10,599 nt of DNA, from NCBI GenBank assembly GCA_964519305.1, contig CAZFHY010000021.1, positions 50,575-61,173 of the forward strand, read 5' to 3'. Positions 6,163 to 8,745 of the stretch are shown here, one piece after another. Under the pieces are notes generated by a model that did no database searches, had not been told where the DNA came from, and worked only from the letters and a program-made list of their open reading frames with translations. Positions within the stretch are counted from its first letter, which is position 1. The number at the start of each line of letters is the position of its first letter. The position numbers and the translations under genes are program-made. Source of the stretch: Candidatus Undinarchaeota archaeon. Its GTDB lineage: Archaea; SpSt-1190; JASMDC01.

Positions 6163-6237
6163 TGGGGCCGACGAGATTTGAACTCATGTCGCCGGATCCC
6201 GAACCCGGAAGGATGGACCAAGCTACCCTACGGCCCC
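6163..6237 (-). tRNA. tRNA-Pro (anticodon CGG), intronless, CCA not encoded
   Basis: The reverse complement GGGGCCG TA GGGTAGCTTGGTCCATCC TT CCGGG TTCGGGA TCCGG CGAC ATGAG TTCAAAT CTCGT CGGCCCC A folds as a cloverleaf. A TATA-like TTTTTAAAA lies upstream at 6285-6277. Confidence 0.95.
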
Positions 6238-6289
6238 TCTAGTTCTCATGGAACTTTCACGTGGAGTTTCTGCAAGTTTTAAAAAGGGA

Positions 6290-7200
6290 CCGATATCGAC
6301 TGATGACGAACAATTCGACAATTGTCGAGTTTATATGAAAACAAATAAAATCGTCAAATGACGTAATAAATGGGAATGTGAATTCTGGACATTTAACGTT
6401 AGGGTTCACGTATTGCGTTTTTCCTCAATTTGATGGTTTTTGCGCTCAAATCCTTCGAGCAGCCTGATCTTGGGCTCATTGGGTGTGGAGTTGTTCTCAT
6501 GTATTATAATGGTGTCATATTTTTCGGTTGGAAACTGGTGATGGGCTGCGTAGAGTCCCGTATATGTTGTTAAGCGTGGGGAATGGCGGGCAAATGTAAT
6601 GAAGGCTGATTATATTTAGTGATGTAAAGAATAGTTGCATAATTGGGGGTATAATTAGTAATACAGCAGGGTAAGTGCGTTATATAATATACTCTGTAAA
6701 GTATTTGTCTAATATAATTAATGGATGTCTTTGCGTATGACATACTACTAATCAGCGCTTAATATTAATAATAACCGGGATTGCAACTAAAATACAGGAC
6801 TGTTATAAAAAAAACAAATATAAAGCACTCAAATAAGGATACAGCATGTAAATAGTGCTATTGAACGGAATATAAGGGAATATATAAGCAATAATCAAAA
6901 AACCGTAAATATATGGAGTAATACATATAAAACATGCAATAAATATGTAGTATAATGTATACAAGGATATGAATCGAAAATAAGACAAAATAAAGAGAAA
7001 AAAAAGAACAATAAAAGTAACAACAAGATACTTTACGTAATAAGGGAAAAAACCAAGATTTATGGCATAAGGGTATGAAATAAGGTAGAAATGACGTTAA
7101 AAACGCTTGTTGCGGACCGCACACTGACCCAAAAACATGGTTTTCTCAAGCATATAGCTGATAAAATGGGTGCGTTTTGTTGATAATTACGGCATCCAAC
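6290..7200. other. Long AT-rich non-coding region with ~10-bp periodicity (possible replication origin or DNA-architecture element)
   Basis: Far more AT-rich than the flanking genes, with no credible ORF. G/C clusters recur about every 10 bp over at least 6826-7105. Confidence 0.55.
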
Positions 7201-7216
7201 GAAATCTTTTTAAGTA
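7201..7216 (+). promoter_or_regulatory. BRE/TATA promoter of the ftsZ transcript
   Basis: GAAATC-TTTTTAAG. The expected TSS near 7235-7240 coincides with the start of the structured leader. Confidence 0.6.
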
Positions 7217-7239
7217 ATTACTCGACATAGAAAAAATCA

Positions 7240-7371
7240 CCCGTTGCAAGGGTTGTGTACCCCACTTCCTTGCTTCGCCCAATGGATCAAAGTCCACTCC
7301 CTGGGCAGCGCATGACGGTGGTCATGCGGGTCATGAGTCCAAACTAGACCGACCCATAAGGCGAGAACGGG
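7240..7371 (+). ncRNA. Candidate structured 5' leader / cis-regulatory RNA upstream of ftsZ
   Basis: Nested stems: CCCGTT/AACGGG, GCAAGG/CCTTGC, TTCGCC/GGCGAG, TGGA/TCCA, TGGG/CCCA, CGCATGAC/GTCATGCG and GGTC/GACC. Confidence 0.5.
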
Positions 7372-7412
7372 AACAATGGAACAAGTGATGAACAAGAAGG
7401 GGTTGGGATATA

Positions 7413-8486
7413 ATGGAGTCGATCATACAAAACGCCTTACAGAACATTCGAGACGAGGACGAACAGGTTCAGGCCGGACAGCCCAGGATATTTATAGTGG
7501 GTTGCGGTGGGGCCGGGAACAACACAGCTGACCGCCTATATTCTATGGGTATCAGTGGGGCCGAGATCATTTCGATCAACACCGACAAGCAGCATCTTGA
7601 CTGCCGTGAAGCAGACAAGAAGCTTCTCATCGGTGCAGAGCTCACCAAGGGTCTGGGTGCTGGTGGCTACCCTCAGGTAGGCAAGGCAGCCGCAGAAGAA
7701 TCAAAGCAGGAGATCAAGGAATGGCTCCGCGACGCGGACCTCGTGTTCATCACTGCTGGTATGGGTGGCGGGACCGGTACAGGCTCCGCATCCGTTGTTG
7801 CCGAGATCGCACGCAACGCCGGCGCGATCGTCATTGGTGTCGTAACGATGCCATTCAAGCTGGAGAAGGCTCGCATATTCAAGGCCGAGACAGGCCTCAT
7901 GGAGCTGCGGAAGAACTCCGACACGGTCATTGTCATTGACAACAACCGCCTTGTAGAGATTGCAGGTAACCTTCCCATTGGTGCCGCTTTCTCCGTTGCA
8001 GATGAGCTCATCTCAACCATGATCAAGGGTATCGTGGAGACCATCGCGGTCAACTCCCTTGTCAACCTCGACTACGCTGACGTCAAGGCCATAATGAAAG
8101 ATGGCGGCGTCGCTATGATCGGAGTTGGCGAGTCAACATCCGAGCACAAGGCCGAAGAGGCTGTCAAGAAGGCACTCAACACGCCCCTCCTGGACGTGGA
8201 CTACGCTGGTGCCACCGGAGCACTTATCCACATCGTGGGTGGGCCCGACATGACCCTCGACGAGGCCAACAAGATCGGCGACCTAGTCACCGCCAAGCTC
8301 GATGACAATGCGAACGTCATCTGGGGTGCTCGCGTCGACGGCCACATGGACGGACGGGTCCGCGTGATGACCATCATCACCGGGGTCAACTCGCCCTTCA
8401 TCCTGGGCCGCATCGACGAGAGGCAGGCGAAGGCCAACGAGGCCGAGAAGGTCAAGGCCGAGCTCGGGATCGAGATCATCCGATAG
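7413..8486 (+). CDS. ftsZ: Cell division GTPase FtsZ (archaeal, FtsZ2-like)
   Basis: [22 protein letters not shown], the tubulin signature [11 protein letters not shown]7 loop VNLDYAD, PLLDVDY and NVIWGAR, plus the archaeal-type C-terminal LGIEIIR. The FtsZ2 assignment is by resemblance to remembered sequences. Confidence 0.97.
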
Positions 8487-8580
8487 GTAGCAAGAGGGAT
8501 GGGATCGGGGATTCCCCCCACCCATGGTCGAGTCACCCCCCCCGACTCTCCAGATCCCCCCCTTTGCATCCTCTAAACAC

Positions 8581-8608
8581 AGGGCCCCCATTCCCCCTTG
8601 GGGGCCCT
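8581..8608 (+). terminator. Hairpin downstream of ftsZ
   Basis: Perfect 10-bp stem AGGGCCCCCA / TGGGGGCCCT followed by a pyrimidine tract. Confidence 0.45.
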
Positions 8609-8745
8609 CCCCTTCTTCATATCCAATCGCATGACGCGTAGCTATCGGTATTGTCCGCGGTCTGCCCGGCAATAGCCATTTAAACCTGACATCGTCACGC
8701 CAACTCGTAATGGGGAGGGTGACGCGCGCCCTGGGAGAGGAGCAC

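Follow-up and report, generated by a model that had tools for sequence, protein, structure and literature searches.

A conserved structured element in the 5′ leader of an archaeal ftsZ gene, a candidate regulatory RNA

The ftsZ gene studied here is preceded by a structured element of 132 nt (7240-7371) that is real and conserved, and for which the exact fold and the function are candidates only. Positions are those of the window, the whole stretch of 10,599 nt that was analysed. The explanation that we favour, and to which we give an even chance, is that the element constitutes the 5′ part of a leader of ∼173 nt, in which invariant hairpins are recognised by a trans-acting factor for the post-transcriptional control of ftsZ. 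Archaeal mRNAs seldom have long structured leaders and, to our knowledge, nearly all that has been learned about the control of cell division in archaea concerns transcription factors such as CdrS.

The window corresponds to positions 50575-61173 of contig C21 in an archaeal genome of 3.63 Mb with 59.6% G+C (G000), which belongs to an uncultured marine lineage. This genome is unusually large and gene-rich for its class (3.6 Mb, against 0.6-1.2 Mb in the other genomes of the class). The features of the locus on which the analysis relies are the following:

6163-6237, minus strand: tRNA gene, an Rfam tRNA match in the window
7093-7199, plus strand: conserved upstream blocks seen in a three-way comparison, with TGATAA at 7160-7165 and 7182-7187
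7200-7214, plus strand: BRE/TATA-like promoter read from the sequence, CGAAA followed by TCTTTTTAAG (CGAAA-TC-TTTTTAAG)
7239, plus strand: putative transcription start, an A after a C, ∼27 nt from the TATA centre, placed by promoter geometry
7240-7371, plus strand: structured element, the first 132 nt of the leader, single copy, fold z −3.92, without an Rfam match
7246-7273, plus strand: hairpin 1, GCAAGGG..GUG-UACCC-CAC..UCCUUGC, pair probability 0.86-1.0 in all three variants, with 10 pairs that never vary
7277-7306, plus strand: hairpin 2, GCCCA/TGGGC around TGGA/TCCA, invariant except at 7283, replaced by long-range stems in the window
7309-7328, plus strand: hairpin 3, 8 bp, carrying the sole compensatory change (7313/7324)
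7329-7371, plus strand: variable 3′ part, with a hairpin at 7336-7345, GGUC/GACC and the 3′ arms of both the closing stem and the long-range stems
7372-7412, plus strand: A/G-rich spacer, with an SD-like GGGGU at 7399-7403, 9 nt before the ATG, predicted to be unpaired up to 7398
7413-8486, plus strand: ftsZ, 357 aa, ATG at 7413, Pfam Tubulin and FtsZ_C, TIGR00065 at 403 bits

The gene at 7413-8486 encodes a bona fide FtsZ. It is one of three FtsZ paralogues in the genome, which carries three more tubulin-family genes, and its product is 70% identical to the copy on contig C8 and 50% identical to the copy on contig C7. Of the three, the C21 and C8 copies come nearest to an Archaeoglobaceae FtsZ (locus L020; 57 and 54% identity, respectively). 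At that locus, a ribbon-helix-helix ORF of 72 aa (CdrS-like, 2266-2484) ends 1 nt ahead of the ftsZ orthologue, in the same order as the cdrS-ftsZ2 arrangement of Haloferax described in PMC8406309. Judged by sequence likeness and by this gene order, the C21 gene would be consistent with an ftsZ2 label. A tblastn search of G000 with the 72-aa L020 query, which has low power at that length, gave no CdrS-like gene below E = 1. The leader of the C8 copy is short and unrelated to the element, and no paralogous structured leader was found there; thus, the structured leader sets the two recent duplicates apart. The spacer ahead of the C21 gene is 1.17 kb long and gene-free, begins at the tRNA gene and is mostly of 23-30% G+C in a genome of 59.6% G+C; its ∼1 kb gene-free part at 6250-7100 contains no notable repeats. 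Beside the tRNA gene, the AT-rich stretch 6311-6442 (33% G+C, −37.4 kcal/mol) folds more strongly than is usual at this composition, ranking within the top 25 of 6306 intergenic windows, and it is only 50-66% identical to G001, a congener of G000.

We then asked where else the element occurs. By blastn, it was present in 2 of 61 archaeal genomes, G000 and G001. The covariance model R1 recovered it in 2 of the 17 genomes of the class, in 2 of 151 archaeal genomes of a wider sample, at none of 23 other archaeal ftsZ loci and at 2 of 19 further metagenome ftsZ loci, both from close relatives (L092 and L091). L092 had a bit score of 150.7, equal to that of G001, and L091, a metagenome contig, provided a third variant, so that the element is represented by three distinct sequences (window, G001 and L091). 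Within the genomes and contigs searched, it is found only in the genus-level lineage of the window. This is not the covarying core across diverse taxa expected of a riboswitch, since the element was seen in 2 of 151 genomes with one compensatory pair. Nor does its position agree with an RNA thermometer of the ROSE or fourU type, the SD at 7399-7403 and the ATG lying 28-42 nt past the element.

The first-pass annotation, made from the letters alone, had recognised no riboswitch and had supposed a new RNA, and the Rfam searches agree with it. Over the whole window, two matches reached the gathering threshold, both to tRNAs and none at the element, and 4227 models searched against 7000-7500 with E up to 10 gave nothing in the element. 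The sole match in that range, snoR41 on the minus strand at 7113-7199 (16.5 bits, gathering threshold 40), lies outside it. A C/D-box reading of 7113-7199 was discarded at this sub-threshold score, and a C-box-like GTGATGA at 7385-7391 is not conserved in G001. An identity as 5S rRNA or another stable RNA was also rejected, as the 5S gene sits on contig C1 (84.5 bits) and the element has no Rfam match. A dispersed or MITE-like repeat, the alternative origin named at first pass, does not account for the element either: blastn found a single copy in its own genome, the other matches being 14-nt chance matches (E = 5.78), viral contigs gave 0 matches, and the covariance model R2 of the 5′ half, searched in G000 and G001, gave the element itself as the only match below E = 1. 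On either strand, the element is overlapped by short ORFs (23-52 aa). A small ORF or leader peptide was nevertheless rejected, because G001 lacks the ATG at 7282, an upstream ORF (7091-7183) is shortened there as read from the alignment, and the 14 variable sites, counted by hand, have no third-position bias in any overlapping frame.

The compact fold claimed for this region was supported by its energy. The minimum free energy of the element was −57.0 kcal/mol, against −41.1 ± 4.05 kcal/mol for dinucleotide shuffles (z −3.92), and 0 of 200 shuffles were as good; the G001 version had a z of −3.19. When intergenic 132-nt windows of the genome were ranked by GC-corrected energy, 37 of 6306 were equal or lower, which places the element in the top 0.6%, with a slight bias in its favour since the scan moved in 22-nt steps and the element was scored in exact register. 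This top 0.6% includes, for example, a tRNA region. The G+C content of the element is 58%, for a genome mean of 59.6%. The minus strand folds about as well as the plus strand (z −3.46), and the strand is therefore not given by the folding energy. In the predicted fold of the full leader (7239-7450), the element stays a closed domain and 7372-7398 is free, as had been proposed for the A/G-rich spacer.

The particular architecture drawn at first pass, a set of nested stems, stood only in part. In the window, the predicted fold contains the closing stem 7240-7245/7366-7371 (CCCGTT/AACGGG), the hairpin 7246-7273, the stem 7274-7279/7360-7365, the 8-bp hairpin 7309-7328 and the hairpin 7329-7350. 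Two other helices, a hairpin at 7283-7296 (TGGA/TCCA) and a stem 7302-7305/7353-7356, are absent from it, and 7292-7296/7302-7306 and 7282-7285/7354-7357 are used in their place; the TGGA/TCCA hairpin is present in the predicted fold of L091. The alternative pairing of GCCCA (7277-7281) with TGGGC (7302-7306), which had been put forward as a switch, does exist and is predicted to dominate in both relatives, with a probability of 0 in the window itself. The observation of a compact structured element is thus partly confirmed.

To estimate constraint, we compared the element with the four-fold sites of ftsZ, which differ at 42/185 positions between window and G001, 40/187 between window and L091 and 18/185 between G001 and L091. 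Of the 14 variable sites of the element, two lie in the first 73 nt (7275 and 7283) and 12 in the last 59 (7313-7371). The differences are distributed as follows:

Window and G001: bases 1-73, 2/73 (p = 3.3e-5); promoter −60 to −1, 3/60; bases 74-132, 9/59 (p = 0.27)
Window and L091: bases 1-73, 1/73 (p = 1.4e-5); promoter −60 to −1, 1/60; bases 74-132, 5/59
G001 and L091: bases 1-73, 2/73; promoter −60 to −1, 3/60; bases 74-132, 10/59

Bases 1-73 are conserved far above the neutral rate, and bases 74-132 drift at roughly that rate. The conservation expected of a functional RNA was therefore found in the 5′ half, well above the level of the four-fold sites, and the near-invariance of both the promoter and the first 73 nt points to a constrained unit of about −60 to +73. 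Over the whole element, G001 and L091 differ at 12/132 positions, about the same as at four-fold sites (18/185). The two kinds of sites also disagree on the tree: the window is nearest to L091 in the element (6 differences) and is the outlier at synonymous sites.

The three predicted folds agree at the 5′ end and disagree in the middle and in the 3′ part. Along with hairpin 1, the central pairs of the closing stem are predicted in all three variants (probability 0.83-1.0). The long-range stems 7274-7279/7360-7365 and 7282-7285/7354-7357 have a probability of 0.70-1.0 in the window and of 0 in both G001 and L091, and the GCCCA/TGGGC helix behaves in the opposite way (0 in the window, 0.89-0.99 in G001 and 0.91-0.98 in L091). 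Hairpin 3 is predicted in the window and in L091 and not in G001. It contains the double change at 7313/7324, U-A in the window and C-G in the relatives, with C/G also in contigs of runs X18 and X8, which represent at least one additional variant, and it contains mismatches as well, A.C in G001 (7322) and C.A in L091 (7328). Three one-sided changes preserve a pair in the plus-strand RNA, A to G opposite U at 7367, G to A opposite U at 7365 and C to U opposite G at 7349. On the window fold, seven events break a pair (7275 twice, 7283, 7322, 7328, 7361 and 7366), the terminal pair at 7371 is broken, and two further changes fall in unpaired bases. The closing stem has mismatches at 7366 and 7371 and is less conserved than any other helix (88.9% of cells paired).

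Covariation in homologues, the check suggested by the first-pass annotation, was not significant: with one double change, 158 of 500 shuffles reached the score (183 of 500 when a four-hairpin model was used), in a comparison of three sequences that has almost no power. No other refuting outcome named at first pass was clearly seen. The nested multi-stem architecture did not carry over to the relatives either, since its long-range stems have a predicted probability of 0 in both and gather mismatches. These predictions suggest that the nested architecture is specific to the window's own sequence, that GCCCA/TGGGC is the better candidate for a conserved helix, and that what is common to the variants would be a series of 5′ hairpins and a weak clamp.

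The transcription of the element was considered next. Archaeal promoters follow a BRE/TATA consensus, with a TATA-to-start distance of ∼25-27 nt, and this geometry would place the start at about A7239, with a conserved promoter 25-32 nt upstream. The promoter has no change across the three variants and resembles a CTTTTTAAAA box (6277-6286, minus strand) that precedes the tRNA gene. The sequence from 7371 to the ATG is free of oligo-T runs and of suitably spaced TATA-like boxes, which argues that ftsZ is transcribed through the element. We mapped assembled contigs of four public runs, three RNA libraries and one DNA run (X8), to 6800-8700. Contigs of all three RNA runs fell on the ftsZ reading frame, those of run X12 being identical to the window. 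A 415-nt contig from the RNA library X18 of a close relative (record 5) spans 7250-7663 with 27 differing letters (∼93% identity) and joins the element to the ftsZ reading frame; this evidence for RNA across the element consists of one unstranded assembled contig from one study, in which DNA carry-over is possible. RNA contigs lay on 7250-8501, with none on 7056-7247 or beyond 8501, assembled contigs being unable to prove the absence of RNA; the X8 DNA contig starts at 7107. This distribution is a hint that fits a start near 7239 and speaks against one downstream of 7371. The element is thus probably transcribed, and the proposal that it begins at the predicted start was upheld insofar as it begins at the most plausible one and is bridged with ftsZ in an RNA-library contig.

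Farther upstream, 6400-7080 is essentially unalignable with G001 (∼40-50% identity), and the identity rises to 70-78% at 7120-7200, where the conserved blocks are located. The two TGATAA motifs are 22 nt apart from start to start, and TGATAA-N16-20-TGATAA occurs at only three places in the genome. These blocks (7093-7199) are possible transcription-factor sites.

The 3′ end of the 16S rRNA reads ...GGATCACCTCCT, which makes GGGGU at 7399-7403 a plausible SD, and this motif is predicted to pair weakly with the early coding sequence. An anti-SD-like CCGACCC at 7349-7355 can pair with GGGUUGG at 7400-7406 over 7 bp, with a probability of 0.99 in L091. However, sequestration of the SD by CCGACCC or by the C-rich loops was no better than chance, with 189, 414 and 221 of 500 dinucleotide shuffles as good, and 5′-3′ UTR pairing fared no better (254/300 and 271/300 shuffles equal or better). 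A switch is therefore not supported by either pairing. With constrained energies, the ON state was favoured by 4.4 kcal/mol in the window and by 5.2 in G001, and the OFF state by 5.6 kcal/mol in L091. For the riboswitch or thermosensor put forward at first pass, neither a ligand pocket nor an expression platform nor a wide distribution was demonstrable, and its SD test is at the level of shuffles.

The favoured explanation would operate as follows. Transcription would start at ∼7239 from the BRE/TATA-like promoter, and the nascent RNA would fold into hairpins 1 (7246-7273), 2 (7277-7306) and 3 (7309-7328). The first six bases can pair with 7366-7371, and this short stem may clamp the hairpins. 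The 5′ hairpins would be recognised in a sequence-specific manner by a trans-acting factor, most likely a protein, and would in this way set the stability or the translation of one FtsZ2-type paralogue; the base-paired 5′ end may also shield the mRNA from 5′-end-dependent decay. Sequence-specific recognition is suggested by the near-invariance of both stems and loops over bases 1-73, in contrast to the drifting 3′ part, and simple structural roles, which do not need invariant loops, are thereby less favoured than recognition in trans. The analysis shows strong folding, a single copy, conservation above the neutral rate and an assembled RNA-library contig shared with ftsZ; in this scheme, we infer the start site, the action on RNA and not on DNA, the factor and the direction of the effect. 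Among the points against the leader explanation are these: its RNA hairpins are equally inverted repeats in the DNA, so that a DNA-level reading fits the same sequence, and seven pair-breaking events stand against one double change and three wobble-preserving ones.

The main rival is a DNA operator region, in which repeats just 3′ of the start bind dimeric factors that repress or pause transcription and the RNA folds are a by-product, an unlikely explanation but one with some substance. Its repeats (GCAAGG..CCTTGC, GCCCA..TGGGC and GCATGAC-N4-GTCATGC) are operator-like, the last being a perfect 8-bp palindrome with a 4-nt spacer; one continuous invariant block spans the promoter and reaches from −60 to +73, the two strands fold to the same degree, as DNA palindromes would, and the conserved blocks at 7093-7199 suggest dense transcriptional control. 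A precedent for the control of an archaeal ftsZ by a transcription factor is CdrS in Haloferax (PMC8406309). However, 73 invariant bases far exceed the needs of one or two operators, and no regulon is obvious, the hairpin 1-type repeat being found at four sites and the hairpin 3 core giving 16 hits over the two strands with palindromic sites counted twice, both being raw counts. The symmetric double change at 7313/7324 is predicted by RNA pairing and not by a conserved half-site, and it is only on the plus strand that the one-sided changes leave G.U pairs; these compensatory and wobble changes oppose the operators weakly. A functionless leader, whose fold would be a local G+C accident by an AT-rich spacer and whose conservation would reflect recombination or short divergence, has in our view little probability. 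It draws on the inconsistent divergence of element and gene (window and L091 have 6 differences in the element, but differ at 40/187 four-fold sites), on the equal divergence of G001 and L091 in both, on a G+C content that is simply the genome mean (58 and 59.6%), and on the finding that windows with z below −3.5 also occur upstream of ftsZ at 4 of 19 other archaeal loci. Against it, the z of −3.9 is corrected for composition, the element ranks within the top 0.6% of intergenic windows of its own genome, the sharp boundary between bases 1-73 and 74-132 is hard to explain by recombination alone, and each of the three pairwise comparisons shows conservation of the promoter-proximal block.

Two further explanations keep the RNA and change its role. 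In the one, a riboswitch or thermosensor would gate the translation of ftsZ by exchanging a compact fold for an alternative one, the candidate pairs being GCCCA/TGGGC against the long-range stems and CCGACCC (7349-7355) against GGGUUGG (7400-7406). Mutually exclusive pairings do exist and swap dominance between variants, 7349-7355 and the SD region are paired in the full-leader fold of L091, conservation of the 5′ core is high, and the lack of a match to a known family would make such a riboswitch new. However, the complementarity to the SD does not exceed that of shuffles, the preferred state differs in sign among variants, the SD is outside the element, ∼30 nt beyond the closing stem, the distribution over 2 of 151 archaeal genomes is unlike that of typical riboswitch classes, and the 3′ half, which would be the platform, drifts near-neutrally. 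We regard this reading as improbable and, so far, unsupported. A related idea, a lineage-specific sensor RNA for a ligand or a protein that would couple FtsZ2-type synthesis to the state of the cell through the exchange of GCCCA/TGGGC for the long-range stems, in a relative of the Undinarchaeia with an unusually large genome, is decidedly unlikely; if true, it would be the first cis-regulatory RNA described in archaeal cell division. In the other explanation, the same promoter would yield an independent or processed sRNA of ∼130 nt, cut off or terminated and acting in trans through its C-rich loops. The autonomous closed fold with paired 5′ and 3′ ends, a size and composition like those of a stable RNA and the loops UACCC and CUCCC are in its favour, and trans-acting RNAs are known to use C-rich loops against G-rich ribosome-binding sites. 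It is nonetheless very doubtful, since the sequence from 7371 to the ATG lacks an oligo-T terminator, no separate ftsZ promoter lies 3′ of the element, an RNA-library contig bridges element and reading frame, the closing stem is the least conserved helix, and complementary targets in the genome are 14-nt chance matches at most.

The leader with trans-recognised hairpins can be compared with known systems. Among bacterial mRNAs, 5′-terminal stabiliser hairpins are known from the ompA-type 5′ UTR and the aprE and ermC leaders. The element shares with them a predicted pairing that begins ∼1-2 bases from the putative 5′ end (at +2, the end being supported only by the contig from 7250), an unusually long leader and a ribosome-binding site outside the structured domain. 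It differs from them in that it belongs to an archaeon, is conserved in sequence including the loops, and has no homology to them. Protein-binding leaders, such as the archaeal L7Ae 5′-UTR K-turn and the leaders of bacterial ribosomal proteins, are likewise structured, constrained in sequence, attached to one gene and restricted to a lineage, without ligand-type conservation. However, no K-turn or known protein motif was recognised in the element, and no Rfam leader matched it. With the riboswitches of Rfam, it shares a compact multi-helix 5′-leader fold with alternative pairings, and it differs from them by the absence of a match in 4227 models, a genus-level distribution and the lack of a supported expression platform. 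The cdrS-ftsZ2 locus of Haloarchaea (PMC8406309) also gives dedicated control to an FtsZ2-type paralogue, and control by CdrS is transcriptional; here, a 1.2-kb spacer and a structured leader are found instead of a cdrS-like ORF. Among the papers listed by full-text searches outside subscription journals, none dealt with an ftsZ leader of archaea that is structured or acts as a riboswitch. The presence of a conserved leader on just one of two FtsZ2-type copies with 70% identity would suggest post-transcriptional tuning, by which recently duplicated division genes are told apart. For now, the element is a well-defined candidate regulator with three sequence variants.

Strongly folding sequences were also seen upstream of ftsZ in other archaea. 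In 4 of 19 such regions, a 120-nt window had a z below −3.5, a value inflated by taking the best of several windows. Loci L014, L015, L017 and L099 have gene-free stretches of 260-520 nt upstream of their ftsZ orthologues with such windows, the one at 2300-2500 of L015 reaching a z of −4.65 with 0 of 200 shuffles as good. These regions have no similarity to the element in sequence or by model.

On the 3′ side of ftsZ, the spacer before a deoxynucleoside-kinase gene (8487-8709) is as conserved as coding sequence. The ∼90 nt after the ftsZ stop have one substitution relative to G001, followed by a 2-base gap at a C-run. The spacer contains many G-runs and C-runs (fold z −2.8) and, at 8600-8622, a hairpin of the GGGGGCCC type with a T-rich tail behind it; the spacer is probably a conserved structured 3′ UTR and the terminator of ftsZ. 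A conserved 3′ UTR fits a heavy post-transcriptional control of this gene. A TATA-like ATTTAAAC is located ∼25 nt upstream of the kinase ATG, and at this distance the kinase mRNA would be leaderless.
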